Part shown: in pieces, positions 39,959-61,099 of the stretch
How positions within the stretch are numbered: the stretch's first letter is position 1
Layout of the letters: every line of letters starts with the position of its first letter
From: a phage
Reading direction: 5' to 3' (one strand)
Sequence record: PQ826431.1
DNA: 64,000 nucleotides
Position numbers and translations under genes: made by a program
Notes under the pieces: generated by a model
What the model was told of the DNA's origin: nothing
What the model saw: only the letters and a program-made list of their open reading frames with translations
Database searches by the model: none

Positions 39959-39974
39959 TATTATCTCCTCTACA

Positions 39975-40367: not shown

Positions 40368-40412
40368 TGAATGCTATCCTATCATAAAATGTTTAATATT
40401 GTCAAGCTTTAA

Positions 40413-41217: not shown

Positions 41218-41227
41218 TGTTTTCTCC

Positions 41228-41395: not shown

Positions 41396-41607
41396 TAATC
41401 TTCCTCCAGATCAATTTCATTATAACAATGTATGCAGAAACCATCATTGTGCATATGTTGTTCATAAGACATATCTTTACCACAAGACCAACAACGGATA
41501 TCCCCATCGTCCCATTCACGTTCTTCTTCACCTTCAAATTCATCTGGTAGATAAGGCATACCAAAATAATCTAAATCGTAACTCATATCTTCTCCTATCG
41601 AGTCCAC
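41395..41607 (-). CDS. small acidic zinc-ribbon protein
   Basis: CWSCG ... CIHC pairs of cysteines. Confidence 0.35.
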   Translation of the reverse strand: MDSIGEDMSYDLDYFGMPYLPDEFEGEEEREWDDGDIRCWSCGKDMSYEQHMHNDGFCIHCYNEIDLEED

Positions 41608-42218: not shown

Positions 42219-45200
42219 TCAATGACATGTGGCCCAGGAATTACCCACATCGTATCCGGCAGTAAGCTGAACGTTAAGATTGTAAAATTCTCCAGCCTTA
42301 GTAACAGCTAAAGCAGCAAGTTCACCTGCCCGACTATAGGCTGTAAACCATCCACCTTTGGGAGATTCATGAATGTTAGCCCAAATTTGCCCTGTCTCTT
42401 TTTCCTTATTATGCTTCCATTCTTCGACTTTAGCAAGGCATTCTTTATCAATTTTCTTTTGTTCTTCAGGATCGTCTACTTTCTTCCAACCTAATGATTC
42501 AGGTGAAAACCATTTGAATTCTACAAGGTTACGAGAAACTTCAAGCTGGGCTTCATCGTGATATGCAATCATTTGTTGCACGAAGTCTTTATTCTTCCAG
42601 TCATCTTTAAAGAAGTCAACACTTAGCCCTTCTTCTTCGATCATGTCATCATAAATAACCATTGCACGTTTAGCACAGATAACCCCACCGCTTTGGAACA
42701 GAGAGTTAAGAATCGCGTGAGCAGAACGAGTAGGAACCTTACGACCGTCAATACCCAAAACATATTGTTTACCAGTCTTAACCCAGAAATCGTTTAAACG
42801 TTCTTTAAGACGCGCCAATGGGAATGCAGCTTCCCAGAAAGCATCGAACACCAGTTGCCCTGTGTATTTATCGCTACCAATTGTTTTAGCAACCTTGTCG
42901 GCTTGTGCACCATAGGTAATACCATACTTAACAGATTTAGCAGGACTACGTTCAAATTTACGTCCAATAGTTTCAGTGATACGTTTTGCCATCATTGTGT
43001 GAACATCATTAGGTTTCTCTAACAACAGAGCGTTACAATATTCGTGTGGCTCCGGCTCGTACCGCCAACAGTTTCCTGTGATGGTAATGCAGTCTTTCTG
43101 ACGCATGACCCACGTACCAAGTTCTGTTTGTGGACACCAAACATCCTCTACACCCCACTCTTCAATAGTCAAACTTTGAACAGGAATGTGAGAGCGGTTA
43201 GTCAATGTTGCCACTTTTACTTTCTGCTCTTTTGTATTGAAAGCTACAGAGATATTGCCTCCATGCACCAGGTACGAGGCAGTTAAAGCTGCTTCAAAAA
43301 GTTCACCTGGGTTCTGCGCCCAACGCCAAACAGGTTTTTGTTTATGTTCGTGCCAGTAACCATCTGCAATCAAGAAACCTTCCAAGAAAGCTACACGCTC
43401 GGCATGAGACATATTAACTACACGTTCTACCCACGGAACATCCCATTTACCTTGTTGAACAGAAGTTAAACTATTTACCTGATCTTGTTCCATGTTAAAT
43501 GGAGCATTACAAATAATGTTATCTCCTGTGCAAAGCTCGGCAGTTGTTCTGACTTTAGGCACATAAGTATTCCCTTTACTACGGGTATTAACATACCAAC
43601 GGTGATCTGCTGTTGCACGGTAAGTGTGTGATTTCCCTTTAATCTCAAACGTCTTACTATTTTTATAGAAGACCTTACCTTTTACTTTAGTCCATTCTTT
43701 CAGACCTGTTTCAGCATTGTACCCTAAAATCTCATCCCCTTCCTTCAGGTCGTGATATCCTACCCAACCTTTACGAGTCAAAGCTTGAGCATCCATCGGC
43801 ACACAGTAATGCGATTCAATTTTTGCTTCCAAAGAGTCGAAGTCGTAACCAATCTGGAAGTATTTAGGAACCTCTACACCAAACAAGTTACGCATCTCCC
43901 ATCCAAACAAAGATGTGACACGAGGAATATTAGCTACAGATCTGTGCTTCATACGAGAGGTTGCAGCATCACATGTAGCGGCTGGGGTAGGAATACGACC
44001 ATCCGCCCTTACTGCGGCTAAGAAACCTTTATCATATTCTTGGTCTTCTTCATCTTCTTCCCAATCAGCACCGCCACCTAAAATAGAGTTCCTACGATGC
44101 TTATACGTTAAGTATTCTACAATCTGTGTAGCATAAGGAAATTTCTCACCCAAAGCTTGCAGGTTAGGACAAATTTCTTTTTCCTGACCTTTGGTAAAAC
44201 ATGGGTTAGTCAATACTTTAAGACCGCGACCCTTACCTTTTGCTATACGCTCTTGAATCTTCCTCTCCAAGGTTTCCGGTGTGCACTCCAGATGATCACA
44301 ACGATCCTGACAAAAATTAGAAGACAGAGTTTGCTCAACGTAAGCTCGAATACCTTTCTGAAGTTCTTCCTCGCTCTTTTTAATCTTGGTGCCAGATTTA
44401 AGAGTCAAGTCTTTATCTTTATATTCAGACGGTACCCAACCTAATCCTACAAGCCAGTTTTTAATATGGGTTGTATCGTTCAATGTTGCAGGAATGTTAG
44501 GATCACATAGAGGCTCATCTGCTGCAACTGGCAGTTTCCACTCTTTCCCCAGCATAACTAACCACCAATCGCCATCCCTCTCTTCCAAATGACCATCATG
44601 TTTCTTAGCAAAATTGATCATATGGTTAGTTGGCTCTAAGTTCTTTTTAATTTGCAACTTAGGTGGAATAAAAGCCTTAAGATAACCTTTTGTTGCTGGT
44701 TTAGGTGGCAAAATAGGCTCAACGAGTAAACGAAGACGCTCCATTTCTGCATCCAAAAAAGCAAGGTTCTCTTCTGCTTGTTTCATGTTAAAAGCAAACC
44801 CACGGTGTTCCTGGCGTGTAATAATGTCTGCTACACGTTGTTCAAGTTCAAATGGACCTTCCCATTTATCATAATCACCCCATTCTTCCATAAGGTAATT
44901 ATATACGCTCGTATTGGCTTTGTTGTCATAGATACAGTAATAAAGCATATCAGCAGCAAAAGTCTTAAATCGATCTTCTTCTGGAATCTCTTTACGGAAA
45001 TCTATTTTTACATCACCCCCTGCCTTTCGAGAAAGTGCTGCCAAGCTATGTCCTGATTTGCCCTCAATCTTTCGATCTGGGTTTAACACTTTACTCAAAA
45101 TCAAGGAGTCAATAAGTTTTACCTTATTTTTGCCCCACGTATTATATTTAACACTGTAATCTAAACCATAAAACAGTTTTGTAGCCAACCAGTCATAGTT

Positions 45201-45551
45201 GATACCGTTGTGAGCCACAGCCATTTCAACCAGATATTCAGGTTTATCTTTAAAATAACCTTCATGATTAATAAAGTCTGGGAAATCTTTTAGTTGAAAA
45301 TGTGTGTAATCTTGCGCCACATACTCTTTAAGAACATATGTGTATTTACCATCTGACTCTTCATAAGGACGCCCATCAAAGATGTATTTAGGGCCATCGT
45401 GGAAAGCTACTATTTCTCCTGTTTCATGGTTCTCTAAGACAATACAGTGCATTTGAAATGTGTCTTTGAGACGATAAGGACTAGCTAAATAATCGATAGT
45501 GTCATTATTCAACAATCCGTTTGCTTCAATATCCCATGTAAACTTACTCAC
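42219..45551 (-). CDS. family A DNA polymerase (3'-5' exo + polymerase), intein-containing
   Basis: Exo I WDIEANGL; motif A GYDFDSLEAKI; motif B RSPAKSVKYGITYG; motif C AYHDEAQLEV; 245 aa insertion between motifs A and B. Confidence 0.85.
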   Translation of the reverse strand: MSKFTWDIEANGLLNNDTIDYLASPYRLKDTFQMHCIVLENHETGEIVAFHDGPKYIFDGRPYEESDGKYTYVLKEYVAQDYTHFQLKDFPDFINHEGYFKDKPEYLVEMAVAHNGINYDWLATKLFYGLDYSVKYNTWGKNKVKLIDSLILSKVLNPDRKIEGKSGHSLAALSRKAGGDVKIDFRKEIPEEDRFKTFAADMLYYCIYDNKANTSVYNYLMEEWGDYDKWEGPFELEQRVADIITRQEHRGFAFNMKQAEENLAFLDAEMERLRLLVEPILPPKPATKGYLKAFIPPKLQIKKNLEPTNHMINFAKKHDGHLEERDGDWWLVMLGKEWKLPVAADEPLCDPNIPATLNDTTHIKNWLVGLGWVPSEYKDKDLTLKSGTKIKKSEEELQKGIRAYVEQTLSSNFCQDRCDHLECTPETLERKIQERIAKGKGRGLKVLTNPCFTKGQEKEICPNLQALGEKFPYATQIVEYLTYKHRRNSILGGGADWEEDEEDQEYDKGFLAAVRADGRIPTPAATCDAATSRMKHRSVANIPRVTSLFGWEMRNLFGVEVPKYFQIGYDFDSLEAKIESHYCVPMDAQALTRKGWVGYHDLKEGDEILGYNAETGLKEWTKVKGKVFYKNSKTFEIKGKSHTYRATADHRWYVNTRSKGNTYVPKVRTTAELCTGDNIICNAPFNMEQDQVNSLTSVQQGKWDVPWVERVVNMSHAERVAFLEGFLIADGYWHEHKQKPVWRWAQNPGELFEAALTASYLVHGGNISVAFNTKEQKVKVATLTNRSHIPVQSLTIEEWGVEDVWCPQTELGTWVMRQKDCITITGNCWRYEPEPHEYCNALLLEKPNDVHTMMAKRITETIGRKFERSPAKSVKYGITYGAQADKVAKTIGSDKYTGQLVFDAFWEAAFPLARLKERLNDFWVKTGKQYVLGIDGRKVPTRSAHAILNSLFQSGGVICAKRAMVIYDDMIEEEGLSVDFFKDDWKNKDFVQQMIAYHDEAQLEVSRNLVEFKWFSPESLGWKKVDDPEEQKKIDKECLAKVEEWKHNKEKETGQIWANIHESPKGGWFTAYSRAGELAALAVTKAGEFYNLNVQLTAGYDVGNSWATCH
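43071..43805 (-). mobile_element. intein (245 aa) in DNA polymerase with LAGLIDADG-like motif
   Basis: Starts CVPMDAQALTRKGW, block B TADH, LAGLIDADG-like AFLEGFLIADGY (about 43356-43391), ends ...CITITGN with +1 Cys; boundaries checked against codons. Confidence 0.7.
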
Positions 45552-46345
45552 TATTCCTCCTTTCTAATGTTCTCCAGAACCCACTGAAGTTCTTTTAAAC
45601 TTAAACTTCTTACTCCCGCAGTTTTACTAGCTTCAGCTTTAAGTAACGGGTAAGCCTCAATGATACGCGTTTTAAGATCAGAAGTCAAGGCTTTTAAAAA
45701 ATAGGTAGATGCTTCAGATAAAGAATCTTCTTCTGATAACACTTTACCTGCACTTGCTCCCGCTCTCCTAACGGCTATATCGTAGTCTTTACTGTTACCT
45801 AATACGAATAGTCGATTCTCTCCTAAAACAACGGGAGAACGCTTCTCGTTGCGTTTAATCCATATCTGGAATACACAAGGAACATCCCAAGGTTCTCCAT
45901 GAAGAATAAAAGATCCTTTTGGACATTCTTCTTCGTAAAGAAGATGCATGTGGGGATTTAGTTTGTGTGCAAAAAAGATTTTTTGAAATGTGCGAGGCAA
46001 GATAAAACAAATACCACCTTCGTTATCCAACATTTCAGCACAATGGTTAAAGAACTTAATGGCAAGACTGGCATTTTTTCCAAACGGAGGATTACCGACA
46101 AAAGCAGTTACACTACCAACAGACTCAACAGATTGAGCTAAAAAATCTGCCTCAATACAATCTTCAAACTTAGGGTCAATATCAAAAGAAGTTATGTTTT
46201 TAAAACAAGAAGAGAAAGCTCCTTCTCCCGCAGATGGTTCTACGTAGTTAGCTTCCTCTCCAAAAATTTCTTTGATCTTATCACATAAGAACCCCGCATA
46301 AGCGGGGTTAGTGTAATATTGATCAAGTGTGTTCAACTTGCTCAA
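45551..46345 (-). CDS. DNA methyltransferase (gamma-class, N6-adenine or N4-cytosine)
   Basis: Motif I VEPSAGEGAF and motif IV NPPF; stop overlaps polymerase start. Confidence 0.65.
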   Translation of the reverse strand: MSKLNTLDQYYTNPAYAGFLCDKIKEIFGEEANYVEPSAGEGAFSSCFKNITSFDIDPKFEDCIEADFLAQSVESVGSVTAFVGNPPFGKNASLAIKFFNHCAEMLDNEGGICFILPRTFQKIFFAHKLNPHMHLLYEEECPKGSFILHGEPWDVPCVFQIWIKRNEKRSPVVLGENRLFVLGNSKDYDIAVRRAGASAGKVLSEEDSLSEASTYFLKALTSDLKTRIIEAYPLLKAEASKTAGVRSLSLKELQWVLENIRKEE

Positions 46346-46850: not shown

Positions 46851-46879
46851 GGTATTTTTAATAAAAGGGCCGAAGCCCT
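46851..46879 (-). terminator. rho-independent terminator after primase-helicase gene
   Basis: On - strand AGGGC-TTCG-GCCCT then TTTATT. Confidence 0.5.
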
Positions 46880-48657
46880 TAATAGTTGCTATCCGTAGGC
46901 AAATTAGCAGGATTGTTGAAATACTGCTCTTTGTCATGCAGAGTTGCAGTTCTAATGTCATAGTAAAACTGCCCTGCCGGACCAGTTTCCGAGAACTCAC
47001 GGTTTTTTAGGATAAAGCAATGAGTCGTATTGCGTTCTACAGGGTCTTCAGCGGCTTTATCTCGTTCCAAAGCCAAGGTAATACCAGCACCTTTAGCCAA
47101 GAAACTACTACCCATTGCATCGTCCTCTGTTAAGTGTTCATTGCCACCATTAGCCGATTTCTTAACGTGTGAGATGACGATAATAGTTATAGCATACTCT
47201 TTCATGATGCGCTTCAACCATGTTGCTAACTCTTCCTGGGCTTGAACATCCATACCAGAAAGCAAATCAGAATAAGGGTCGATAACAAGAATTGTTACTC
47301 CAAAATAGATGATCATCTCCAAAACTTTTTCTTTGATAGACTCCACATCTGCTCCACGATCATCACACACATAAAAACGTGGTGATCCATCTTCTCTTTC
47401 GTAAAAATCTAGGATTTTTTCTTTATTCTCTTCCAAGATTTGAAATTTCTCTTCCGGTGTTTTCCTGTGCAGAGGAATATGCAGGAACGAGGACAACAGG
47501 TTACGAGAGTATTTCTTATAAGTTGCTTCCAATGACAGAATACCGAGGGTATGTTCTGGGTGTGCAACGATAATATGTTTGGTGATCTCATTCACCATCA
47601 AAGTTTTACCGATACTCGTCTTTGCCAGAATGACTGTAATCTCTTCCTCTACTAAACCACCACCAAGCATATTTGCAGCAACACGCATAAAAGGAGGCAA
47701 GGTAATCATCTTGGATTCCAAGCATTCTAATGCAGCTTCATACAAGACATTAGAAGCATAAACACCTGCTGGGGTGTATAGACGAGCACTCCAAAAAGCT
47801 TTTACGAAATCCTTTGCACGACCTTCTTCCAGATACTGATTGGCATCCTTAAGATCCATCTGCATACGGTAGACTTTGTTACGAGGCAGCACCTTAACAA
47901 TATTTTCAAATGCCTCATTACCTGCTTTGTCATTATCCATGCAAACAATAATCTTCTTAAATTTTTCAAAAAAAGGATATTGCGCCTGAACTTGTTTATA
48001 CATACTGGTTTCACCAGTTGTGCCACTAACTACTGCTGGAAGTTCATACTTGTTGTCCAAGTTTTCAGATAGCATTTGATAAGCTGCCAGAGCATCGTGT
48101 TCACCACCTGTAATTACCACAGTATGAGAACGGTCTGCAAAACGAATTTGTCCAAAAAGATCTACATCTTTACCTACTTGACCAATAGGTTTACTGAAAT
48201 CTTTAGGATGAATACGACGCTTAAAACCAACCAATTCTTTACCGATAGTAGTCGGATATAAACAACTTTCTACTACCATCTGATCCCCTTCCTGACGGTA
48301 TTCATAACGAACACCATAGAAAGATGAAACTTTTTCTTTAATGCCTCGATAACCACGTGGGTTGGTTGATGTTTCTTGAACAATTTTACGATGAATCTGT
48401 TTATTAAATTCCGAACCCACAATCTCCTCCTCTTCTTCTAAAACTTCACCATTTTCTCGTAACCATTCTACGCTAGGAATAGTGTATTCACACGCAAAGC
48501 ACTTAGCACCTTTATGCTCTCCATTAGAATCTAATCCATAAACCATCAGGTTATTACGAGAGCGATCCTTGCCATTTTTCATGCAGCGCGGACAACCTGT
48601 ATGCCCTTCCTTGCTAAGATCAACATCAAATCCATATTTAGTTATAATGTGCGACAC
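46879..48657 (-). CDS. primase-helicase (T7 gp4-like / DnaB-like)
   Basis: N-terminal Cys4 zinc ribbon (CPRC...CFAC), Walker A AKTSIGKT, Walker B-like LVIDPYSD. Confidence 0.75.
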   Translation of the reverse strand: MSHIITKYGFDVDLSKEGHTGCPRCMKNGKDRSRNNLMVYGLDSNGEHKGAKCFACEYTIPSVEWLRENGEVLEEEEEIVGSEFNKQIHRKIVQETSTNPRGYRGIKEKVSSFYGVRYEYRQEGDQMVVESCLYPTTIGKELVGFKRRIHPKDFSKPIGQVGKDVDLFGQIRFADRSHTVVITGGEHDALAAYQMLSENLDNKYELPAVVSGTTGETSMYKQVQAQYPFFEKFKKIIVCMDNDKAGNEAFENIVKVLPRNKVYRMQMDLKDANQYLEEGRAKDFVKAFWSARLYTPAGVYASNVLYEAALECLESKMITLPPFMRVAANMLGGGLVEEEITVILAKTSIGKTLMVNEITKHIIVAHPEHTLGILSLEATYKKYSRNLLSSFLHIPLHRKTPEEKFQILEENKEKILDFYEREDGSPRFYVCDDRGADVESIKEKVLEMIIYFGVTILVIDPYSDLLSGMDVQAQEELATWLKRIMKEYAITIIVISHVKKSANGGNEHLTEDDAMGSSFLAKGAGITLALERDKAAEDPVERNTTHCFILKNREFSETGPAGQFYYDIRTATLHDKEQYFNNPANLPTDSNY

Positions 48658-48669
48658 TTTGTTCTCCTG

Positions 48670-48948
48670 TTAAAATGGTTCGTTAGTCTCCATCATATAT
48701 TCTGCTTCTAGTTCTTCCATGTGCTTTCTAAATTGGAAAGCAATTTCTGCTACAGTTACATTTAAATCTTTTTCAAAAACTTCTGTAGAGCCTTCGTAAA
48801 AACGAATACCGTCAATTAAAAGCCCTCCGTGGTAATCCCAATCACTTTCACGAGAAAGCGGGTTAGGCTCTTCATAATAGTAATCCACCTCCACGACTAA
48901 GGCTTTCCCGTTACAAGTGGTGTATTCAAAATCAAAAGTGTTAATCAT
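48670..48948 (-). CDS. hypothetical protein
   Basis: 92 aa ORF. Confidence 0.3.
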   Translation of the reverse strand: MINTFDFEYTTCNGKALVVEVDYYYEEPNPLSRESDWDYHGGLLIDGIRFYEGSTEVFEKDLNVTVAEIAFQFRKHMEELEAEYMMETNEPF

Positions 48949-49892
48949 TATAGCTCCTCAAATAAAAGTCTACGACGCTCATTCAACACATCAATGTGAT
49001 AATGAGTCCTGACATACTTAGCTAATGCTAATCCTTTCTCCATGCAAACATCGGGAGCACTTAATAAGTATTCCGTAATATCTTTCCACTCGGAAGGTGT
49101 TTCAGCAAAGAACAACAGATCTTTAAACTCTTGTGTATGATAATTCTCACGAGGAGAACAGATCAAAGGTAAACCCTTAGCACCTGCCTCAAGAATTTTA
49201 AGATTGCTTTTTGCATTATTAAACACGTTATCAATCAGTGGCGCAAGACTTATTTGATGACCATCGTAAGATTCCATGTAGTTGGCATATGGTCTTACAC
49301 CTTCATAAACACAAGTTGGTGCTACATTTTCTCTGATTACAGACCATTCACGACTACTTAAAACTTCAGAATCCCTACGAAAACCACATATTGTAAGATC
49401 TTTACCAAAATCGGGCAAGATAGCCAAATCTTGCTTATGTGTTTCACTTCCAGCCCACACTAATGGAGTTTTGGAGTAGCGATCACGGGTCAACACAAAT
49501 TGACCTTCGTCATAAGGAAGTCCATTAGGGATTATGTGCACATTATCATTGTATTGTGAAAGTTCAACTTGCAAGGCAGGTGTCGTAGTTGTAACAAGAT
49601 CACTGTGCTCTAAAAACCATTTTAAATGTTCACGAATACCTGATTCAAAAATACCTTCTAACATGTGTCCTTTTGGAATAACTAAAGAGTCATCCAAATC
49701 CATAACCATTTTAAAGCCTAGGTTTTTAAGGGCTAAAAAGCCCTCTTTACCTTTTGTTGGCACTCCGTTAAAAACGAAAACATTGTATTTAGGTTGTGAA
49801 GAGAACTGCCTTGAGTAAGGCAGCACTACCCTATGGAAATCGCAGACACTATAATTGATTCCGTTACGATTGTCAAGAATTATTTGTCCCAT
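48948..49892 (-). CDS. glycosyltransferase-like protein, paralog 1
   Basis: C-terminal LKILEAGAKGLPLICS; clear paralogy with next gene. Confidence 0.45.
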   Translation of the reverse strand: MGQIILDNRNGINYSVCDFHRVVLPYSRQFSSQPKYNVFVFNGVPTKGKEGFLALKNLGFKMVMDLDDSLVIPKGHMLEGIFESGIREHLKWFLEHSDLVTTTTPALQVELSQYNDNVHIIPNGLPYDEGQFVLTRDRYSKTPLVWAGSETHKQDLAILPDFGKDLTICGFRRDSEVLSSREWSVIRENVAPTCVYEGVRPYANYMESYDGHQISLAPLIDNVFNNAKSNLKILEAGAKGLPLICSPRENYHTQEFKDLLFFAETPSEWKDITEYLLSAPDVCMEKGLALAKYVRTHYHIDVLNERRRLLFEEL

Positions 49893-49899
49893 ACTTCAC

Positions 49900-50847
49900 C
49901 TACAAACTTTCAATAACCTGGCGTCGCAACTCGTTTGCATCTGCCAGATTATAATGTGTTCGAACATGTTCAGCCAAGAACAAGCCACGATCTTCCCGAT
50001 AGTTTGGATTGCGAAGAAGCTTAACAATTTCGTAATGCCATTCTGCTTTATTCTCTGCGTAAGCAACAGCGCGAGCATCTACAGGGTTAAAATAAGGTAA
50101 TACCTTAGAACAAACAATCGGAATACCTTTTGCTCCAGCTTCTAGGATTTTGAGATTACTTTTACAATTATTAAAATCATTATCTACCAAAGGAGCTATA
50201 GCAATAGCATGACTTTCGTAAACACTCATGTAATTATCTAAATCTTTTACAGCGGCTTTATATTTGGCATTTGGTAAATTTCTGCGAATCTTAATCCACT
50301 CTTGTCCCGTGATGCTCTGCGATGCTTCATACCCCGCAATAGTAAGAAGTTCATCATCGAAAGTATTAGAGACTAGTCGTAAATCGGGTTCGTGACTAGC
50401 ACCGCCAGCCCATACAACAGGGGTACCGGATGAACGATCATTTGACAAAGTGAATTGTCCGCTATCAAAAGGAAGTGCATTTCGGATCACAACGACATTT
50501 CTATTTAAGTGACGGATCTTGTATGCCAAGTATTCCGTAGTTACAATAACCACATCAGCAAGCTTAACCATAGCCACAATAGCATGAGTGTTTGACTCGT
50601 ATAGACTCGCTAAGTAATGTTCTGGATTAAGTTGGTAGAAATCATCTAAATCTACAACAACCTTAACACCTTGACGTTTCAAAGATAAAACGTATTCTGC
50701 ACCTTTAGAGTGGATACGGTTAAACACAACAATATCTTTCTTAGGTTGAAAATTATTGTTGTTAAATGGCATAACAATACGATGATAGTCACAACCACTA
50801 TGAGGTTTTGCATCAATTTTTAGTTTAGACCATTTTTTATTTGACAT
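49900..50847 (-). CDS. glycosyltransferase-like protein, paralog 2
   Basis: ORF track 49900-50886; likely start at internal ATG (MSNKKW) preceded by GAGGAGG; shares CDYHR, VVDLDD, LKILEAGAKGIP with paralog 1. Confidence 0.45.
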   Translation of the reverse strand: MSNKKWSKLKIDAKPHSGCDYHRIVMPFNNNNFQPKKDIVVFNRIHSKGAEYVLSLKRQGVKVVVDLDDFYQLNPEHYLASLYESNTHAIVAMVKLADVVIVTTEYLAYKIRHLNRNVVVIRNALPFDSGQFTLSNDRSSGTPVVWAGGASHEPDLRLVSNTFDDELLTIAGYEASQSITGQEWIKIRRNLPNAKYKAAVKDLDNYMSVYESHAIAIAPLVDNDFNNCKSNLKILEAGAKGIPIVCSKVLPYFNPVDARAVAYAENKAEWHYEIVKLLRNPNYREDRGLFLAEHVRTHYNLADANELRRQVIESL

Positions 50848-51520
50848 GTGCCAGTGCCTCCTCATAGGAAATTCGGATTTTCCCATTTTTAATATCCTCT
50901 AAAGATGCTTTATATTCTTCCCAGTTAATCCCGATAGCAGCTTCTTTCTCTTCTTTTGTCAGATTAGCAAAAGGCATAGGGTTGTTTCCAAAAACATCGT
51001 CTGGGTGGATATAAGCCATGATACGAAGTGGACAAGGTGTTGCCTGAATACCATGATTCAAACCAGCAGCTTTCAAACGGTGTCCCCATTCAGCATCTTC
51101 AAAACCATAGCCGTGAGTGTAAGGACGGAAATAACCCATCTTCTCAACAACGGCACGAGAATACATTGCAAATTGACACATTGCAAGTTCCCAGAGAATA
51201 ACTTCTCCTTTGCTTCCAACAACTTTATCTTTGAAATACTCCGGCATACCAAAGAAATCCCATCCTCCAGAGACAGCTTGATCTACAAAGTATGTTTCCC
51301 ATCCCTCCATGACTGGGTAGCAATCGTCGTCAAAAATAAACCAATAATCATAACCTTCTTCATAAAACTGGTGCATAAGTTCATTCCTGGCATAAGCTAC
51401 ACCTTTACGATCTGGATCGTTGAATACTCGAAAATCTGCACGTGGATCTGTTACAAGGTAGTCTTTAAGTGGACGGACACCTACAGTGATAACACCCACT
51501 CCAATTTTAATATTTTCCAT
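50837..51520 (-). CDS. glycosyltransferase (GT-A-like, DxD)
   Basis: FIFDDDCYP acidic motif after hydrophobic strand. Confidence 0.4.
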   Translation of the reverse strand: MENIKIGVGVITVGVRPLKDYLVTDPRADFRVFNDPDRKGVAYARNELMHQFYEEGYDYWFIFDDDCYPVMEGWETYFVDQAVSGGWDFFGMPEYFKDKVVGSKGEVILWELAMCQFAMYSRAVVEKMGYFRPYTHGYGFEDAEWGHRLKAAGLNHGIQATPCPLRIMAYIHPDDVFGNNPMPFANLTKEEKEAAIGINWEEYKASLEDIKNGKIRISYEEALAHVK

Positions 51521-51528
51521 TTTCTCTC

Positions 51529-52092
51529 CTAAATAGTTTTACTGTGATCATGACAGTGTAATAAATGATGTATAGACCGTTGAGGATTTGTTTGACCTAA
51601 TCTGTAAATGTGAAACAGATACATTCCCCGCATCAATCCTAACCTCTTTCCTTTTTCATGTAAAGTGCGAGAGAAAATTAAGTCGAATTGGATAGATTTT
51701 TCTTCGAAAGGAATTTCATTCCACAATGATTTTCTAAAAAGCAAGAAGAAACCTGCCAGAGGTGTTCCGAAAGGAACTTCTTCAACACTCACTTTATGAT
51801 ATTCTCTTGCAATCTTAGCATATTCTATATGGTTTAGAATATCTGGATCATCGTTAATTTGGTTAGAGAAAAGCTGATAACCACTGCCTAACCTGTTACA
51901 AGTTGCACCTATTACATCAAAAGGCGGGTTTGACATAACAAGCTCTTCAAGCATAGATGGTTGATCAGGTAGGAGGAACATTGTATCGGTATCTCTTAAA
52001 CACACCCAACTATCATCTGGAAGAACGGCAATGGCTTCATTGATAGCCTTGCCGATATTTCCTGTCAGATAGGGAGTAATATAATAAATCAT
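51529..52092 (-). CDS. putative glycosyltransferase-like protein
   Basis: LRDTDTMF DxD-like motif. Confidence 0.3.
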   Translation of the reverse strand: MIYYITPYLTGNIGKAINEAIAVLPDDSWVCLRDTDTMFLLPDQPSMLEELVMSNPPFDVIGATCNRLGSGYQLFSNQINDDPDILNHIEYAKIAREYHKVSVEEVPFGTPLAGFFLLFRKSLWNEIPFEEKSIQFDLIFSRTLHEKGKRLGLMRGMYLFHIYRLGQTNPQRSIHHLLHCHDHSKTI

Positions 52093-52108
52093 TCTCCCCT
52101 CCGTTATA

Positions 52109-52300
52109 TTAACTGTCAGCTACAATCCCACGTTTAATCATTTCTTGTTGAATCTGGATCACACGATCTCGTGCTTCCATATATTCTTTAAAAGATTCTT
52201 GGAGATGGTCACGAGCTACATCCCGTAGTTTAATCAGTTTGTCGTTTGTCACTTCTTGAAGAGAGATTTCGCCAGTTTCATTGGTCCCAAGCGTTTTCAT
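52109..52300 (-). CDS. small hypothetical protein
   Basis: 63 aa ORF. Confidence 0.25.
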   Translation of the reverse strand: MKTLGTNETGEISLQEVTNDKLIKLRDVARDHLQESFKEYMEARDRVIQIQQEMIKRGIVADS

Positions 52301-52556
52301 TTACAACCTCCTTAATAGCTACTGCACAGTTCTTACAAATACATTGACCTTTGTTCTTAGAAATTTCAATGTAAGGTTCATTTTCGTTTTCTCCGCGTCG
52401 TGAGTCGTATATTACTGTATTGAAGCAGACAACGCAAATGTTTTTAATAACGACATATTTTTGCACTTTCTGTTTAGTGCGAAAATTGACTTCAATGACT
52501 TCTCCCATCAATGAATCTCCCCTAAAATGTTGTTTTGAGACATTACTGCGGAGCAT
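52278..52556 (-). CDS. small zinc-ribbon protein
   Basis: CVVC ... CICKNC. Confidence 0.3.
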   Translation of the reverse strand: MLRSNVSKQHFRGDSLMGEVIEVNFRTKQKVQKYVVIKNICVVCFNTVIYDSRRGENENEPYIEISKNKGQCICKNCAVAIKEVVNENAWDQ

Positions 52557-52793: not shown

Positions 52794-53315
52794 TTAACTC
52801 CCCTTTGGTAGATAGAAACCATGCACTTTATCTCGATAAACAAGACGCATATCACGTTCCCAGTGTGTCCTTATATTCCGTTTCTTGAAGTATAGAGCAC
52901 CTTTAGTAACATCTAAAACAGACCGCAATTCAGGAAAATGTTTCTCTAAATAAAGTAAACGCTCCGCTATTGCTTTTGCTTCCTGCCACTTATCTTTCTC
53001 TGTTACGTTAAAAGTTTTCGCATATGAGAATTGTCCTTTCTGGAACAAGACTCCTCTGACTGTGTTAGGGAAGTAGGTATCATTTCTTCTGTTGATTACC
53101 ACATTCCCAACGGCATTCATTCCTTTTTTACCCAGACCGCGACCTTCTGCGTAAATTGCACAAGCTAATAGAATTTTATCATTATATTGCTTTGTACATT
53201 TGTGAACTACTTTAGCGGTTTTTACGTTTGCAGCTTCGGCTTTCGCCACAACAGGTGTAAATGTAAAAGCAGTTAAGGATAGTAACGCAACTGTTACAAA
53301 GTTTTTTATCAGCAA
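52794..53315 (-). CDS. secreted cell-wall hydrolase, SleB/CwlJ-like (putative endolysin)
   Basis: Signal peptide ending AKA-EAA; motif CAIYAEGRGLGKKGMNAVGNVVINRRN...VLFQKGQFS; TTG start with AAGGAGG RBS. Confidence 0.55.
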   Translation of the reverse strand: MLIKNFVTVALLSLTAFTFTPVVAKAEAANVKTAKVVHKCTKQYNDKILLACAIYAEGRGLGKKGMNAVGNVVINRRNDTYFPNTVRGVLFQKGQFSYAKTFNVTEKDKWQEAKAIAERLLYLEKHFPELRSVLDVTKGALYFKKRNIRTHWERDMRLVYRDKVHGFYLPKGS

Positions 53316-53414: not shown

Positions 53415-54017
53415 TTATGGACATTCATACCATTCTTTTTTACCACCGAAGGCCATCACCACATCACAAATATCCAGACCAGCTTTACCTACACCATATG
53501 CTTTCAGCTTCCATTCCCCATCTTCACGAACCAAGGAAGCCACGTGGCAGATTGTGTTGCCAGCTACTTCAGGAGCCAGGAAGTCAAAATCCAGAATTTC
53601 CACATTGCGCTCGGAGTCGAAGATTTTAAGCATACCTTCAGAAGCATGACCAAAACGTTTCAGACCTGTATCATCATCAATGGTCAGAACAAAGGCAATC
53701 TCTTGTGCATCAGGAGAGATTTTAGCCAGAGTAATATCAATCTGCTCCATGCTGCCAGTTCCATCACGAACATCGTCACCAGCGAAGGTAGAACGTTCAG
53801 GATCAAACTTGTTAGCATAGCAAACCAGATGACGTGCAGACAGCATTTCAGGATTACCAGCGGCATTGTGACGACAAACCAGTGCACTTACATCCAGATC
53901 CAGTTTAGAATCAGATTTCCAAGAGAATTCCAGGCGCAGTTCTTTCAGAGCCGGAGCAACTTTCTTCAGGGAAATTTTTTCGCTAGAGCCTTTTTTCAGG
54001 GAAATTTTATCAGTCAT
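53415..54017 (-). CDS. terD: TerD-family stress protein
   Basis: N-terminal KISLKKG, DLDVSAL, EIAFVLTIDD, GEWKLKAYGVGKAGL match canonical TerD blocks (compared with E. coli TerD from memory). Confidence 0.8.
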   Translation of the reverse strand: MTDKISLKKGSSEKISLKKVAPALKELRLEFSWKSDSKLDLDVSALVCRHNAAGNPEMLSARHLVCYANKFDPERSTFAGDDVRDGTGSMEQIDITLAKISPDAQEIAFVLTIDDDTGLKRFGHASEGMLKIFDSERNVEILDFDFLAPEVAGNTICHVASLVREDGEWKLKAYGVGKAGLDICDVVMAFGGKKEWYECP

Positions 54018-54032
54018 CTTTTGTCTCCTCTA

Positions 54033-54302
54033 TTATTTAAGTGTAATACCAGTTACAGTCAATTCTACTTCCAAAAGCTTAGATGTGTTTTGGATTGATA
54101 CTAATTGTGCATGATGGTTTAGTTCTACAGCAGAATAATCATTTTCCCCATCATCTACTTTTAAATAAACAATGATTTCACTAAGGTCTAAACCATTTTC
54201 GTCAAATGCATTTTCATAGACGAAAGTATCTCCTACATCCAAATCTTTAATGGTAAGGCATCGTTTATTTACTTTTTGCTCATCAATTTCGAAGTTTAAC
54301 AC
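54033..54302 (-). CDS. small protein, paralog B of a phage-specific pair
   Basis: Shares DLDVGDTF ... ELTVTGITLK with the 55324-55602 product. Confidence 0.4.
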   Translation of the reverse strand: MLNFEIDEQKVNKRCLTIKDLDVGDTFVYENAFDENGLDLSEIIVYLKVDDGENDYSAVELNHHAQLVSIQNTSKLLEVELTVTGITLK

Positions 54303-54531
54303 TTCTTCCTCCTAATGTTATCTCCGGTTTGTATATACGAAGAATTATAGCATTTTCATTTTCTTTGTCAACCCATTCTTCATAATCGGGCCATACATGA
54401 ATCTCCACTCTACTTACAATATCTTCCATTCGCACAGTCCCAATGAAATACTCTTTGAGACTGCGCATAATGAAAGCTTCTCTCTCGCGCCAATAATTTT
54501 CTATGACTTGAGAGGCAAGCTCGTCGATCAT
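54283..54531 (-). CDS. hypothetical protein
   Basis: 82 aa ORF. Confidence 0.3.
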   Translation of the reverse strand: MIDELASQVIENYWREREAFIMRSLKEYFIGTVRMEDIVSRVEIHVWPDYEEWVDKENENAIILRIYKPEITLGGRSVKLRN

Positions 54532-55322
54532 TTTTTAGCACCTACTTTAACAACCCACTCTCCGAACTCTTCAGATAAGAGTTTGTCATAAAGCTCTGAA
54601 TCTGTCAAGTCTAAATCTTTAATGCCAATAAAACCAACATTATCATAAGCATTTGCCAGTTCTTTCAGGAACCCAAACTTCTCATTACCAACGCCAACCA
54701 TGAACCAATAAATAGGTTTATTCTTATTCTCTTCAATAAGACGACGAACAGCACTAGGATCACCATTCTCACCATCCGTCTGGAAGAATACAACACCAGG
54801 GGTAACGTCAGCACCTGGTTCAGATACAGCTACAACTTTTTCACGCTCTACAGACACTGTTTCAGTTTTACCAAGCAGACGATTAAAGAAGCCTTTCTTT
54901 GGAGCCTCCTCTTGTACCACTTGTTTAGTGGTAATATATTTGGTAACAGTGCCAAAATACTCATCGTAGATATCTGCCATTACAGGGGCGTAATTTGTTC
55001 CACCTCCGATACGAACATTACGCATACATTTACCAACATAGTCATCGTAAACGTCTGCTGTTGCTGGAGTAAGCTCTTGGGAACTCGTATTGAAGGCCCA
55101 CATATCAATTTGTTGATTATCGTCGAACAGCATACCAAAAGGAAGCAGTTTACCTACAAAATCACTCACTACCCCACTAGAATATAGACCATGCATACTA
55201 CCAGAAATATCTAGAGCACATGCTACACGAAGAACAATCTTACCTTCATTCAGGTTCTTATTCTTTTTCAGAGAGAAAGCAAGGTTTTCTTGACGTTTTT
55301 TCAGGCTGATTTTCTCGGACAT
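54528..55322 (-). CDS. vWA-domain protein, TerF C-terminal-like
   Basis: MIDAS motif ALDISGSMHG; N-terminus KISLKK like TerD. Confidence 0.6.
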   Translation of the reverse strand: MSEKISLKKRQENLAFSLKKNKNLNEGKIVLRVACALDISGSMHGLYSSGVVSDFVGKLLPFGMLFDDNQQIDMWAFNTSSQELTPATADVYDDYVGKCMRNVRIGGGTNYAPVMADIYDEYFGTVTKYITTKQVVQEEAPKKGFFNRLLGKTETVSVEREKVVAVSEPGADVTPGVVFFQTDGENGDPSAVRRLIEENKNKPIYWFMVGVGNEKFGFLKELANAYDNVGFIGIKDLDLTDSELYDKLLSEEFGEWVVKVGAKK

Positions 55323-55323
55323 A

Positions 55324-55602
55324 TTATTTCTCCTTCTTAAGTGTAATATTGGTAACTTCTAAATCTACTTCCACCATATTTGTATCTGGTGGGATGCAAT
55401 GAGTATAGCCTCGTTGTGCTAGTGATCCATTAATACAAATCGCACTGTTTGTGGAATTTTTAATGAACACCAAGTTACGGTAGGTATCCAACCCTGCGTC
55501 TTCATAGGCATCATAATACATGAATGTGGCCCCTACGTCAAGATCTTCGAAAGCAATAGGTAAATCCTGACTTTTTTCTTCTTGAATATTGAATCTAAAC
55601 AC
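55324..55602 (-). CDS. small protein, paralog A of a phage-specific pair
   Basis: ORF track 55324-55668; likely GTG start after GAGGAGG; DLDVGATF ... LEVTNITLKKEK. Confidence 0.4.
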   Translation of the reverse strand: MFRFNIQEEKSQDLPIAFEDLDVGATFMYYDAYEDAGLDTYRNLVFIKNSTNSAICINGSLAQRGYTHCIPPDTNMVEVDLEVTNITLKKEK

Positions 55603-56158
55603 GCATACCTCCTCTACCAATTTTGAAGCCCAAATCGTAAGCTTCCTTAGTGATCTTTTGTAACTCACTTATAGGAAGTGTTACAAGAGGATCATCTTCT
55701 TCAATTTCCATCTTGTCATCTTCTGTTTCAATGAGAGTATTATGCACTTTGTGATAAGGGTTGTCAACACGTTTAAACTTATTCTTTTCTGTGCTGAAAA
55801 AACAATCTGGATCTTCTTCACCATCACCCCAACCTTGGTTAGGATCTCCGTCAGATTGTTCTGTAGGGATTTCACCTGTAAAGTACTCTTCCAGCACCAT
55901 AGCAATACCGTCCCTTGGATTTGAGGAATGCATTAAATCACAAACCTTACCCCAATCCATAGCCCATTCGAACCGTTCACGAACGCCATTTTCATCCTCC
56001 TTTCCAGAGAAAACACAACCATAACTATCATAGTTGCCATACATCTCTTCAATAACAACACCGTCCTTCAAAAGAAAGAGGTAGCAAGGTGATCCGTCGA
56101 AAGAAGTAGAAAGGGCAGCTTTGCCCGATTCTTTGCACAAAAAGCTAAAACAACCCAT
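55595..56158 (-). CDS. hypothetical acidic protein
   Basis: 187 aa ORF. Confidence 0.3.
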   Translation of the reverse strand: MGCFSFLCKESGKAALSTSFDGSPCYLFLLKDGVVIEEMYGNYDSYGCVFSGKEDENGVRERFEWAMDWGKVCDLMHSSNPRDGIAMVLEEYFTGEIPTEQSDGDPNQGWGDGEEDPDCFFSTEKNKFKRVDNPYHKVHNTLIETEDDKMEIEEDDPLVTLPISELQKITKEAYDLGFKIGRGGMRV

Positions 56159-56361
56159 TACAAACCCTCCTTCAGATTATCAAGAGCTACAGTGGTTTCA
56201 CAAGAGTCTCCATAAGTTTTATGATGTTCCAGAAAAGCTTCGGGTCCACCCCAGTCATTATCTTGTGTATTCCAGCCATCAATAAAAGCATCTTCAATGA
56301 TTGTGATCAGTTCTTGTCGGGTTAACTGGATAATATTAGGATCGTTATCGTAGTTAAACAT
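56158..56361 (-). CDS. small hypothetical protein
   Basis: 67 aa ORF. Confidence 0.25.
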   Translation of the reverse strand: MFNYDNDPNIIQLTRQELITIIEDAFIDGWNTQDNDWGGPEAFLEHHKTYGDSCETTVALDNLKEGL

Positions 56362-56527
56362 CTTCTTCCTCCTCTAAAATATGGAACCCGTAATTACAAT
56401 AATCCTGAAAGGTTTCGTGCGCAAGATCTTCTATATCCTCTTGAGACATATCATCTTCAATTTCGATATCCACAACCTCATTGCATCCACACCAAGCAGT
56501 TTCAATATTCACTCGTAATGTTTTCAT
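56354..56527 (-). CDS. small Cys-containing protein (57 aa, not in ORF track)
   Basis: ATG overlapping upstream stop (TAATG). Confidence 0.25.
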   Translation of the reverse strand: MKTLRVNIETAWCGCNEVVDIEIEDDMSQEDIEDLAHETFQDYCNYGFHILEEEEDV

Positions 56528-56724
56528 TACTCCTCCTCCTCATTGAAGTCAATATCTGCAAGGAGTTCGAATTTACGGAAGTTACGACAACCTTCATAAA
56601 TATAACAATCACGACAAACTGCTAGAACACTTGCGGGATATATACCTCCCATCGGTGCGAATCGTTTTTCGTCATCATAACGGACACCAATGTCTTCATC
56701 AATTATATAGATACGGATTCTCAT
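56527..56724 (-). CDS. small hypothetical protein
   Basis: 65 aa ORF, CRDC...GC. Confidence 0.25.
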   Translation of the reverse strand: MRIRIYIIDEDIGVRYDDEKRFAPMGGIYPASVLAVCRDCYIYEGCRNFRKFELLADIDFNEEEE

Positions 56725-57833
56725 TTACCAAGCCCTCGTTTCACAGCAGCTACCATCCCGTCTTCCAGAGATTGAACTTCATTAATATAATCAACACGAG
56801 CAGCACGGGCTTCCGTATTGATGCGGTTAGTTTCTTCCAACATCTTAACCAAGTTTTCCTGATCGTGACGCAGAGTTTCAATATCCAACACTTGACGGTT
56901 AGCCAGTGCTGCTGCTTCGATCTGATTCTGTGTGGCAAGATCGCTACCCAGTTTAATTGCCAGGTTAAATTCATCAAGAACGTTATTCTGCGTCTCTGCT
57001 GCTTTCATTTGACGTAAGCTCTCGATATACATTGAGAAGTTAGCAGAGTAAGCAGGAATAACATTATTTACTATGTTACGCGCAGATCGCATTAAGCTTG
57101 CAGAAACTTTTTGCATACCTTGTACACGCGGTCCCATTTGGACACACAGTAGGCGCAATGCTTTTAAATCTGCAATACGAATCTCCAGAAGATCCAAAGT
57201 ATCTCGGATCACTTGTCGCTGTTCTACTGCATCTTCTGGAAGAGCAGCCAAAGCTTGTTCTTCTTTTTCATAGGTTGCTGTTAGAAGCTGCATATCTCGG
57301 TTCAAACTTGCAGCATATTGTCCAATAGCTTGATGCAGCTTTTCAAGATATACCAAGGAATCTTCTTCTTTGCGAATATCCATTTGAAGGTTCTTTACCA
57401 ACTCTTCAATACGGTTATTAACATTATCAAACTCCCCGAACAGGTCTTCTTTCATACCCATAACTTTTTTAATGAGTTTAGTAATACCCTTGCTTTGTTT
57501 AATAGAGTTTGGATCAAGTTGTTTTGCCTGTTTAATCAAAGCTGTGAGTCGTTCACTCATCTGATCGCCTTGATTACTACGTTGATGTTTTAACACCTCG
57601 GCATTCAAGGAACGCAAGGTTGTTCCTGCCTCTGCCCCAATCTCTTCAATCTCTTGTCGGGTCATAGAAGGCAAAACTGGAACTTCTTGCGGTGCCGCTG
57701 GTGCATAAACAGGACTGGCATCTAACACGCTTGGAGCGAATACAGATTTACTTGCATCTGTTGTTGCAGCGAATACACTCATTTCAGACTTCTTCTGACC
57801 ACCAGTAGCTGCTTTTAAAAATGGACTTGTCAT
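56721..57833 (-). CDS. telA: TelA-like toxic-anion-resistance family protein
   Basis: 370 aa, all-helical, acidic; call rests mainly on size, composition and the TerD/TerC/vWA neighbourhood. Confidence 0.4.
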   Translation of the reverse strand: MTSPFLKAATGGQKKSEMSVFAATTDASKSVFAPSVLDASPVYAPAAPQEVPVLPSMTRQEIEEIGAEAGTTLRSLNAEVLKHQRSNQGDQMSERLTALIKQAKQLDPNSIKQSKGITKLIKKVMGMKEDLFGEFDNVNNRIEELVKNLQMDIRKEEDSLVYLEKLHQAIGQYAASLNRDMQLLTATYEKEEQALAALPEDAVEQRQVIRDTLDLLEIRIADLKALRLLCVQMGPRVQGMQKVSASLMRSARNIVNNVIPAYSANFSMYIESLRQMKAAETQNNVLDEFNLAIKLGSDLATQNQIEAAALANRQVLDIETLRHDQENLVKMLEETNRINTEARAARVDYINEVQSLEDGMVAAVKRGLGK

Positions 57834-58420
57834 TCTTCATTCTCCTCTTCTGCATCTCTTATATATGGTGAAACACCGTACTCTTTAGCTACTTTAACCC
57901 AATCATCCCATTTATACAACCATAATTTTCCTTCAGTTCCTTCTTTATCTGATTTCAACCACATGTTAGGTTGCTTGCCTGGGTACATGCGATTAGGTTT
58001 ACGATTATAACCTCTAACACATCTTGTCGCAAACCTATCTACCAGAACAAGAACATATTTATATTCGTGGTTCAACGGCTCTTTGGAAGTGGCTTTAGGA
58101 TTAGCCCCTAACTCTGCTGCCAGTTTTTGCCAATGAGCACCGTGTCTACTAAACTTACCCATACAACCATCAATAGCATGAGCAATTTCGTGCTTCATTG
58201 TATCCACGATCATATCTCTTGTGGAGTTCTTATGCAAGTGCCAATTTACAACAACAATTTTATCTCGGTAGTTGCACCAACCGAAAGAGTTATTCACTTT
58301 GTTTCTAACACAAGCTTTATATCCTGCTTCACGTAACATGTTGTAGTAAACAGGAAAATCTTCTTTTATTTCCTGCATCACTTCCCACCACAAGAGTTGC
58401 AAGTCTCTCTCGGTATGCAT
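57830..58420 (-). CDS. SprT-like zinc metalloprotease domain protein
   Basis: HEIAH zinc-binding motif followed by HGAHW. Confidence 0.5.
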   Translation of the reverse strand: MHTERDLQLLWWEVMQEIKEDFPVYYNMLREAGYKACVRNKVNNSFGWCNYRDKIVVVNWHLHKNSTRDMIVDTMKHEIAHAIDGCMGKFSRHGAHWQKLAAELGANPKATSKEPLNHEYKYVLVLVDRFATRCVRGYNRKPNRMYPGKQPNMWLKSDKEGTEGKLWLYKWDDWVKVAKEYGVSPYIRDAEEENEE

Positions 58421-58423
58421 AAC

Positions 58424-59017
58424 TTACACCTTAAAAGCGAAATGCGTGGTCGTGGCTTCAAAATCAGGGCCAGATAAACTTGCACTGAAATCTGAAATAT
58501 TTGTAATTAAAAAGCTTTTATGCATACCTAACACAGCCACGCTTTCAATATCTTCTACTAACATTTCAATCATGTTAGAAACATGGCTGAACGTATAGTT
58601 TTGTTTTTTGATGGTGTAGAAAGAAAGACTCCCACCTGCTGTATAAGATACCTCTTCAAAATCTTTAATCGTATATTGTGTGCCATCAGTAAAGAAAATG
58701 GTAGCTTTATTAGTAGCACGTTTCTTGTTTTTTGGTCCTTTTTTACGTTTACTGCGAGTAGGCAAACCGTTTGGAAATACTGTAGCTACAAATTCTTCAG
58801 GAGAAACCTCCTTACCGAAATCATAACCGTAAGAAACAGCGTCTATAAACTCGTCGTCTTCATTTTTAAAATAATGAAAATAGGGCCAATTTGAGAGATT
58901 ATCGAGCATCTTATGCTCATCCACAGCAGAGAACGTATCCCTCAAAGCACGTGTGATTTGCAAAGCATTAGGCAAACTTTTAACACCTGTAATGGAAGTA
59001 CGAATAGAAATTGTCAT
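58424..59017 (-). CDS. hypothetical protein
   Basis: 197 aa ORF. Confidence 0.3.
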   Translation of the reverse strand: MTISIRTSITGVKSLPNALQITRALRDTFSAVDEHKMLDNLSNWPYFHYFKNEDDEFIDAVSYGYDFGKEVSPEEFVATVFPNGLPTRSKRKKGPKNKKRATNKATIFFTDGTQYTIKDFEEVSYTAGGSLSFYTIKKQNYTFSHVSNMIEMLVEDIESVAVLGMHKSFLITNISDFSASLSGPDFEATTTHFAFKV

Positions 59018-59031
59018 TGTTTTTCTCCTTA

Positions 59032-60003: not shown

Positions 60004-60045
60004 AAGTCTCTCCTATAAAATAGCCTCCCGAAGGAGGCTCATCTA

Positions 60046-61020: not shown

Positions 61021-61037
61021 TCTTTTCTCCTCTCTTT

Positions 61038-61096: not shown

Positions 61097-61099
61097 CAC

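Follow-up and report, generated by a model that had tools for sequence, protein, structure and literature searches.

The phage DNA of sequence record PQ826431.1, a stretch of 64,000 nucleotides that we analyzed as a whole and refer to as the window, carries four consecutive glycosyltransferase genes on its minus strand at 48948-52092. We tentatively propose, with confidence somewhat short of even, that these genes form a glycan-assembly cassette whose acceptor is not DNA but most likely a protein, a virion component being the leading candidate. The evidence consists of the folds and paralogy of the four proteins, the conservation and modularity of the cassette among phages, its co-occurrence with rhamnose pathway (rml) genes, a relative's genome free of recognizable base-hydroxylating enzymes, and homology to proteins encoded in flagellin loci.

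A block of four glycosyltransferase genes in a Phapecoctavirus genome

The window is a segment of a Phapecoctavirus (phAPEC8-like) coliphage genome: 65 Phapecoctavirus genomes (Stephanstirmvirinae) match positions 48600-52400 at 98-99.7% identity, PQ438048 being the best match. The four genes are already on record. In the RefSeq entry of phAPEC8 the block corresponds to gp071-gp074, each labelled 'glycosyltransferase', a label that the block genes carry in dozens of genomes, and in EmilieFrey, a hand-curated phi92-like phage of the BASEL collection, the orthologues appear as two 'putative glycosyltransferase' and two 'putative disaccharide synthase' genes. Our literature search found no experimental work on the block genes. 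What has been published is speculation on 'rhamnose modification' (PMC7552041, PMC10844046), including the idea of DNA modification or rhamnosylation in these phages put into print by Olsen et al. (PMC7552041), and one functional counter-observation (PMC8594841).

A reading made from the letters of the window and its open reading frames (ORFs), hereafter the sequence-only reading, had placed four glycosyltransferase-like genes at 48948-52092, and all four ORFs were recovered there, on the minus strand, where the genes of this genome arm are encoded. In order of transcription they are gene 1 (51529-52092, 187 aa, a small glycosyltransferase of the GT-A type), gene 2 (50837-51520, 227 aa, GT-A type), gene 3 (49900-50847, 315 aa, GT-B paralogue 2) and gene 4 (48948-49892, 314 aa, GT-B paralogue 1, CgeB/GT4-like). 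The genes are closely packed or overlapping, each has a separate Shine-Dalgarno sequence, and no minus-strand terminator was found inside the block. The longest ORF of gene 3 reaches to 50886 (328 aa); its true start is likely the ATG at 50847, since GAGGAGG stands nine bases upstream of that codon and a 948-nt annotation in the relative iGC_PHA_EC001 agrees with a 315-aa product.

The products of genes 3 and 4 have the two Rossmann-like domains and the C-terminal nucleotide-sugar binding motif of GT-B enzymes. Their paralogy, which had been read from shared motifs, holds over 303 residues at 41% identity (E 7e-77), and the motifs themselves are present in both (CDYHR/CDFHR, VVDLDD/VMDLDD and LKILEAGAKG[IL]P). 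Conserved in gene 4 are the N-terminal C-D-[YF]-H-R, the DLDD motif, H76 and KSNLKILEAGAKG. PF13524 (Glyco_trans_1_2) is the sole Pfam family that gene 4 matches at threshold, and marginally so (25.2 vs 25 bits), while the matches of gene 3 to Glyco_trans_1_4 and Glyco_trans_1_2 both fall below threshold. Three GT-B proteins from metagenome assemblies (P0013, P0014 and P0020) resemble chimeras, with an N-terminal half like paralogue 2 and a C-terminal half like paralogue 1; these could have arisen by recombination between tandem paralogues or be assembly artefacts.

The products of genes 1 and 2 have a single Rossmann-like domain and a conserved DxD motif, as GT-A enzymes do, in agreement with the two DxD proteins recognized earlier. 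The family alignment of gene 2 reveals invariant positions in DDD (within FIFDDDCYP), in the pair E141-D142 and at H172/D175. Its matches to PHROG glycosyltransferases are strong (PHROG 2456, E 9e-79; PHROG 1579, E 7.6e-13), and its Pfam matches to the GT-A families TAGT, Glycos_transf_2 and Glyco_transf_7C are weak and below threshold. Gene 1, with its motif at D34-x-D36, belongs to PHROG 14179 and is without a Pfam match; neither BLAST nor profile comparison related it to gene 2. For three of the proteins a PDB sequence search returned nothing usable, and NCBIfam holds no family for any of the four. No membrane segment was found in the four proteins, in which the best 19-residue Kyte-Doolittle means (0.8-1.6) fall on core beta-strands. 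Three of the four have an isoelectric point (pI) of 5-6.

Rhamnose pathway genes accompany the block

We read the full genome of a near-identical relative, OR437326, and found RmlC and RmlD above the NCBIfam equivalog cut-offs. A complete rmlB-A-C-D set is present in phAPEC8 and phi92-like phages. Among Phapecoctavirus-type records, 46/71 carry rmlB-A-C-D and 25/71 rmlCD only, the latter owing to a precise deletion of rmlB/rmlA that is shared by the nearest relatives of the window. These genes lie outside the window (in phAPEC8 at 34470-42033, locus L012; in PQ438048 at 108339-109756), in a nucleotide-metabolism region among ribonucleotide reductase (RNR) and glutaredoxin genes. A megablast search returned 71 records with the block, the same number as with rml, and phages in both listings all carry both. 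Block and rml are found together in Phapecoctavirus, Justusliebigvirus and the Klebsiella Stephanstirmvirinae, and the block-bearing phi92-like and Klebsiella relatives also have rmlC. Enterobacteria produce dTDP (deoxythymidine diphosphate)-4-keto-6-deoxyglucose for enterobacterial common antigen (ECA). Phages with only rmlCD should thus still make dTDP-L-rhamnose, because their enterobacterial host supplies this precursor. The loss of rmlBA and retention of rmlCD in 25/71 records therefore argues that rhamnose itself is the end-product that the phage needs and that selection keeps.

The transferase core is mobile and modular

In the protein database the transferase families are small and phage-restricted. 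Within the Stephanstirmvirinae, one genomic slot holds two, three or four transferases: two or three in the Klebsiella phages, four in a more distant relative; in phi92-like phages the block is at the same place. Smaller versions occur in temperate phages. For example, a Serratia HK97-like prophage carries a gene of the 187-aa type, a GT-A and a GT-B (35-50% identity) between its lysis cassette and terminase, and a lambdoid phage has a GT-A + GT-B pair on the late transcript, with the Q antiterminator/HicAB region on one side and the holin on the other. In Pseudomonas prophages the pair lies directly upstream of genes for a metallopeptidase, the terminase subunits (small, TerS; large, TerL) and the portal, and in three of them (L018:5645-6271, L019 and L047) it is itself directly preceded by a small ORF with a Ser/Thr/Ala-rich Big_2 Ig-like domain, a possible glycosylation substrate. 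A Chitinophaga prophage presents the order primase-helicase, GT-B, hexapeptide acetyltransferase, GT-A-like gene and TerL. The single GT-B of the prophage versions is most similar to gene 3 (50% identity in the Serratia prophage, 40-46% in other prophage copies).

Uncultured phages extend this picture, with GT-B relatives on at least 568 IMG/VR contigs. In one of them (IMG/VR 3300037193_000509, L053) TerS, TerL and the portal gene are followed directly by a five-gene glycan module (L053:4499-11583) consisting of GT-B, the 187-aa type, GT2, GT_PLOD and a CmcI-like methyltransferase of the rhamnosyl O-methyltransferase family. In another (L007) the module is found between TerL and portal/capsid genes, and a third (L008) has an additional DegT aminotransferase. 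We clustered the ORFs of 106 loci, which formed 53 dereplicated groups, 35 of them with 3 kb or more to either side. The commonest neighbor of GT-B in these 35 was the GT-A of the gene 2 family (18/35 groups), always on the same strand and mostly directly upstream; an acetyltransferase was present in 8 groups, and terminase genes were typically 2-14 genes downstream of GT-B. PHROG and Pfam searches gave nothing for the commonest neighbor clusters lacking annotation (162-aa, 101-aa and 80-aa families). The GT-B/GT-A core is thus mobile and modular, and its sugar-tailoring enzymes and variable transferase number are typical features of systems that build oligosaccharides on glycoproteins or polysaccharides.

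Cellular relatives lie in flagellin loci

Matches in bacterial genomes were of two kinds. The close ones were all prophages, and the distant ones (L033-L037; uncultured Gammaproteobacteria, Chromatiaceae and Dechloromonas) were modules of proteins of about 1232 aa; each such protein has two modules homologous to the phage GT-B. The phage GT-B profile aligned end to end with residues 900-1208 of one such protein (L035:4007-7705; hhalign 99.6%, E 1.5e-24, 277 columns), and the alignment keeps the N-terminal HR, DD and KSNLKxLE motifs. The same locus contains a flagellin gene (13169-14011), with a 1305-aa TPR-GT41 protein encoded between it and the 1232-aa protein. From their gene content, loci of this type look like flagellin glycosylation islands. 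In Pseudomonas syringae, Fgt1/Fgt2 attach a glycan of Rha-Rha-modified viosamine to serines of flagellin (PMC3927599). The kinship with flagellin loci is the sole functional hint offered by the homologues; it points towards protein glycosylation and draws on gene context.

Candidate acceptors other than protein

DNA base glycosylation had been put forward in the sequence-only reading as one role of the block. The transferases would then glycosylate, perhaps rhamnosylate, a modified base to evade nucleases, by analogy with T-even, RB69 and TET-associated systems. We consider this improbable, and genome content, restriction phenotypes of sister phages and the distribution of the module all disfavor it. 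The known kinds of phage DNA glycosylation require a base hydroxyl, provided by a ThyA-homologue hydroxymethylase/hydroxylase (PMC13326640) or a TET/JBP dioxygenase. The earlier observation that the window lacks a hydroxymethylase extends to the full genome of OR437326, in which we checked the annotated candidates and 74 further ORFs of at least 100 aa: Pfam detected no ThyA-type hydroxylase/hydroxymethylase, TET/JBP or 2-oxoglutarate oxygenase (18 families in the 74 ORFs, none an oxygenase or ThyA), and C5-cytosine methyltransferase was not among the families in these scans. The thymidylate synthase of OR437326 is ThyX of the ordinary phage type; over 1000 phage genomes have it, among them those of rV5-like, ICP1, PAK_P1-like and N4-like phages without the cassette, and we rejected a divergent ThyX as hydroxymethylase on this ground. 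The phi92-like BASEL phages, which possess the orthologous four-gene block, were described as 'exceptionally susceptible' to restriction-modification 'despite a putative dTDP glycosylation machinery' (Maffei et al., PMC8594841), a sensitivity that covers type I-III systems; we found no restriction data for Phapecoctavirus in the literature, the ZCKP1 and Korf et al. papers included.

The location in the replication arm, between endolysin and primase/helicase, would suit DNA modification, as would the position of rml among RNR/glutaredoxin genes and a transferase number that differs among relatives as in T-even phages. In L007 the module has an Nmad5 gene at a distance of about 5 kb, some environmental contigs repeatedly show C5-methylase and Mom-like genes around GT-B, and the idea has been proposed in print (PMC7552041). 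Gene 2 also has a weak local match to TAGT (PF20691; E 0.0012, 19.3 bits vs a gathering score of 27.5) over 37 residues (32-68) around the DxD, and another, within residues 32-70, to the PHROG of beta-glucosyl-HMC alpha-glucosyltransferase. The structural comparison with known DNA glucosyltransferases that had been suggested as a check spoke the other way: there was no specific similarity to T4 alpha- or beta-glucosyltransferase (AGT, BGT) over other GT-B enzymes, and these two and the HY126 DNA arabinosyltransferase were more distant than generic GT4 enzymes. None of the top 50 viral structural matches, of which about a dozen are unnamed entries, is named a T4-type DNA transferase; the other viral relatives belong to the CgeB-like or GT1 enzymes and come from giant viruses and uncultured phages. 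Moreover, temperate phages of lambdoid and HK97-like type have the same core without a base-modifying gene in the vicinity, and base replacement via the nucleotide pool is implausible in such small phages. The conserved N-domain residues of the GT-B proteins are acidic (DLDD), as are three of the four proteins by their pI, and the nearest cellular relatives are those in flagellin loci. A sparse or sequence-specific modification of DNA may still exist, yet it gained no specific support.

Modification of host surface glycans, the other role originally named, keeps a place among the alternatives but gained no specific support, and we judge it unlikely; protein glycosylation, absent from that first account, fits the comparative data better. 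With host glycans as the target, the enzymes would act at the inner membrane face on lipid-linked or lipopolysaccharide (LPS)/ECA/NGR-type intermediates. This could mask receptors, leading to superinfection exclusion and fewer progeny lost on debris, or tie up undecaprenyl phosphate. Phage RmlC/RmlD would indeed tap the dTDP-4-keto-6-deoxyglucose pool that feeds ECA, the module occupies classic moron positions in temperate phages, and surface glycans (ECA/NGR, LPS core) are the receptors of these phages (PMC8594841, PMC11990801). Yet the four proteins lack any membrane segment or transmembrane-like hydrophobic stretch, we saw no partner of the flippase, polymerase, ligase or bactoprenol type, and the hosts (Enterobacterales, Pseudomonas and Chitinophaga) have unrelated envelopes. 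In lambdoid and L053-type phages the module belongs to late or head operons, with expression just before lysis. The specific case of ECA as acceptor was rejected because Pseudomonas and Chitinophaga prophages carry the module too. Least probable to us, and markedly so, is a soluble glycoside or glycosylated small molecule, either a decorated form of the nucleoside-like metabolite predicted for Ter-associated PRTase/HAD or a sugar-phosphate/trehalose-like compound. A TerD / vWA-TerF / TelA / TerC / PRTase_3 / HAD set does accompany the block in the window and in a related locus (L015), its PRTase/HAD modules being on the same strand and 1-11 kb away. The core is nevertheless found without Ter genes in prophage and IMG/VR contexts, and two to five transferases with sugar-tailoring enzymes suggest an oligosaccharide, not a simple glycoside. 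Structural neighbors within GT4 do not allow the acceptor to be predicted.

Genes around the block

The block is situated between a primase/helicase gene (46879-48657, Pfam match) and the gene of a SleB-type endolysin (52794-53315, minus strand, Pfam match), as had been read before. A putative N6-adenine methyltransferase of the NPPF type (45551-46345, Pfam match) had been described as next to the block; in fact the primase/helicase and a 143-aa ORF separate it from the transferases. Between primase/helicase and gene 4 lies a gene for a 92-aa acidic protein (48670-48948, minus strand; pI 4.1), a member of PHROG 4240 (unknown function) without a Pfam match, whose start codon shares one base with the gene 4 stop codon. 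Its orthologues are at the same place in phAPEC8, EmilieFrey and L015, and two Klebsiella phages have ORFs of 86-89 aa in this slot, matched by position alone. The protein may be a partner of the transferases, as it trails the block in the other Stephanstirmvirinae loci examined.

The endolysin has a hydrophobic N-terminal segment (MLIKNFVTVALLSLTAFTFTPVVAKA) that suggests a signal or signal-anchor-release sequence, and a second, T4-lysozyme-like endolysin is annotated at another site in the genomes of relatives. Beyond it, on the strand of the transferases, a Ter-type stress/metabolite cluster occupies 53415-63904 (minus strand), a set uncommon for a lytic phage. It includes genes for TerD (53415-54017), a vWA-TerF-like protein (54528-55322), TelA (56721-57833), a SprT-like protease (57830-58420), the TerC membrane protein (60046-61020), PRTase_3 (61821-62648) and a protein with a weak, below-threshold match to HAD hydrolases (62641-63297), all on the minus strand. 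On the other side, the DNA polymerase gene (42219-45551, minus strand) contains a clean insertion of 245 aa (residues 583-827, window 43071-43805) that begins with Cys and ends in ...TGN followed by Cys. The phAPEC8 polymerase is without it, the flanks being 100% and 99% identical, and the insertion looks like an intein. Just downstream of the polymerase is an HNH endonuclease ORF (41595-42191), which is also present in the intein-bearing iGC_PHA_EC001 and absent in phAPEC8. Elsewhere, hypothetical ORFs of OR437326 (L002, L004) contain NADAR, Macro, CapR, Acb2/Tad1-hairpin and cREC_REC domains, a collection that suggests a sizeable counter-defence repertoire.

Discussion

Taking protein glycosylation as the preferred reading, we infer rhamnose as a donor sugar, sequential action of the enzymes and the identity of the acceptor, as follows. 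The four co-transcribed genes would yield soluble, nucleotide-sugar-dependent glycosyltransferases, two GT-A followed by two CgeB/GT4-like GT-B, which could assemble a short oligosaccharide stepwise, one sugar per enzyme and up to four residues in all. At least one sugar is probably L-rhamnose, drawn from dTDP-L-rhamnose made by phage RmlC/RmlD, with RmlB/RmlA also contributing in some relatives; in the lineage of the window, host RffH/RffG or RmlA/RmlB would supply the dTDP-4-keto-6-deoxyglucose precursor. In place of DNA, the acceptor would most likely be a protein synthesized in the course of lytic growth, in the first place a virion component, in parallel with virion glycosylation in mycobacteriophages and chloroviruses and with flagellin glycosylation in bacteria. 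We favor protein as the acceptor because of the late or head-proximal positions of the module, its kinship with flagellin islands and the precedents for virus-encoded glycosylation with deoxy-sugar pathways. A bolder version is that a widespread, unrecognized phage system for protein O-glycosylation, kin to the transferases of flagellin glycosylation, has the GT-B/GT-A pair as its core, and that in the Stephanstirmvirinae it expanded to four transferases which, coupled to the dTDP-rhamnose pathway, decorate virion proteins. Such a system would range over phages of Gram-negative bacteria and Bacteroidota, and we regard this version as rather unlikely.

Several observations weigh against protein glycosylation. 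No glycosylated protein is known from any of these phages. The 2026 cryo-electron microscopy study of phi92, with atomic models of most virion components, is silent on glycans, modifications and additional density, although it would not have resolved glycans attached to flexible segments. Among the structural ORFs in the window (1-38500), we saw no capsid or tail protein with a low-complexity Ser/Thr-rich tail like the mycobacteriophage acceptor sites, and the highest Ser/Thr fraction per 25 residues (at most 0.48) always falls in folded-looking fiber proteins. The rml genes are about 70 kb from the block and linked to it by co-occurrence only. In the Stephanstirmvirinae the block keeps company with replication genes by the primase/helicase, like the T4 DNA glucosyltransferases, and in many small phages the module is inserted at the replication-packaging junction, a hot spot for DNA-modification genes and morons. 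Finally, genes of a C5-methylase cluster and of a Mom-like cluster turn up repeatedly close to GT-B in some environmental contigs.

Comparison with known systems brings out both likenesses and differences. As with T4 alpha-/beta-glucosyltransferase and the arabinosyltransferases of RB69, DLP3 and HY126, the enzymes are phage-encoded, nucleotide-sugar dependent, GT-B in some cases and located among replication genes. Their number varies between relatives as in T-even/RB69 systems, and RB69-type phages, like the block-bearing ones, encode their own sugar-nucleotide pathway (PMC13326640). In contrast to the T4-type system, there is no ThyA homologue and no specific AGT/BGT similarity. Gene 2 recalls the TET-associated glycosyltransferase TAGT, which acts in the phage route from 5-methylcytosine (5mC) to 5-hydroxymethylcytosine (5hmC) to glycosyl-5hmC, in being a small GT-A with DxD and in its weak local match, but that match spans 37 residues below the gathering score, and no TET/JBP dioxygenase is found in the relative's genome. 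Serotype-converting gtrABC systems, which glucosylate O-antigen, are not a good model, as the four proteins have no transmembrane-like stretch and no Gtr Pfam match and the trio of GtrA flippase, GtrB and Gtr is not in evidence. With the spore-maturation glycosyltransferase family CgeB/YkvP (PF13524) the block shares the motif N-x-K-x-L-E-A-G-A-x-G, although the family match is marginal for gene 4 and below threshold for gene 3. Bacillus spore surface glycans contain rhamnose made by sps-encoded Rml homologues; we know of no established biochemical acceptor of CgeB.

Closer to the favored reading are viruses that glycosylate their own virions. Glycosylation of mycobacteriophage capsids and tail tubes was reportedly described by Freeman et al. 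in 2023. Mycobacteriophages, chlorovirus PBCV-1 and mimivirus use their own cytosolic transferases, sometimes with a deoxy-sugar pathway and sugar methyltransferases, and the L053 relative, with four transferases and a CmcI-like methyltransferase after the portal gene, resembles them in this respect. The structural neighbors include CgeB-like GT-B proteins from cyanophages and giant viruses. Unlike in mycobacteriophages, the block proteins do not belong by sequence to the mycobacteriophage transferase families, and no Ser/Thr-rich acceptor tails were seen. Flagellin islands such as that of P. syringae Fgt1/Fgt2 share end-to-end homology of the module, and the comparison system uses dTDP-deoxyhexoses; the phage enzymes differ in being single-module, with no flagellin nearby and 22-30% identity, and are likened to Fgt1 by context.

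Therapy cocktails make use of Phapecoctavirus and phi92-like phages, which rank with the most frequently isolated coliphages of broad host range. Should DNA be glycosylated after all, the modification would do without any known hydroxylating enzyme. If instead a rhamnose glycan is attached to virion proteins, it would affect immune recognition, clearance and stability of the particles, and virion glycosylation would be extended from mycobacteriophages to phages of Gram-negative bacteria.

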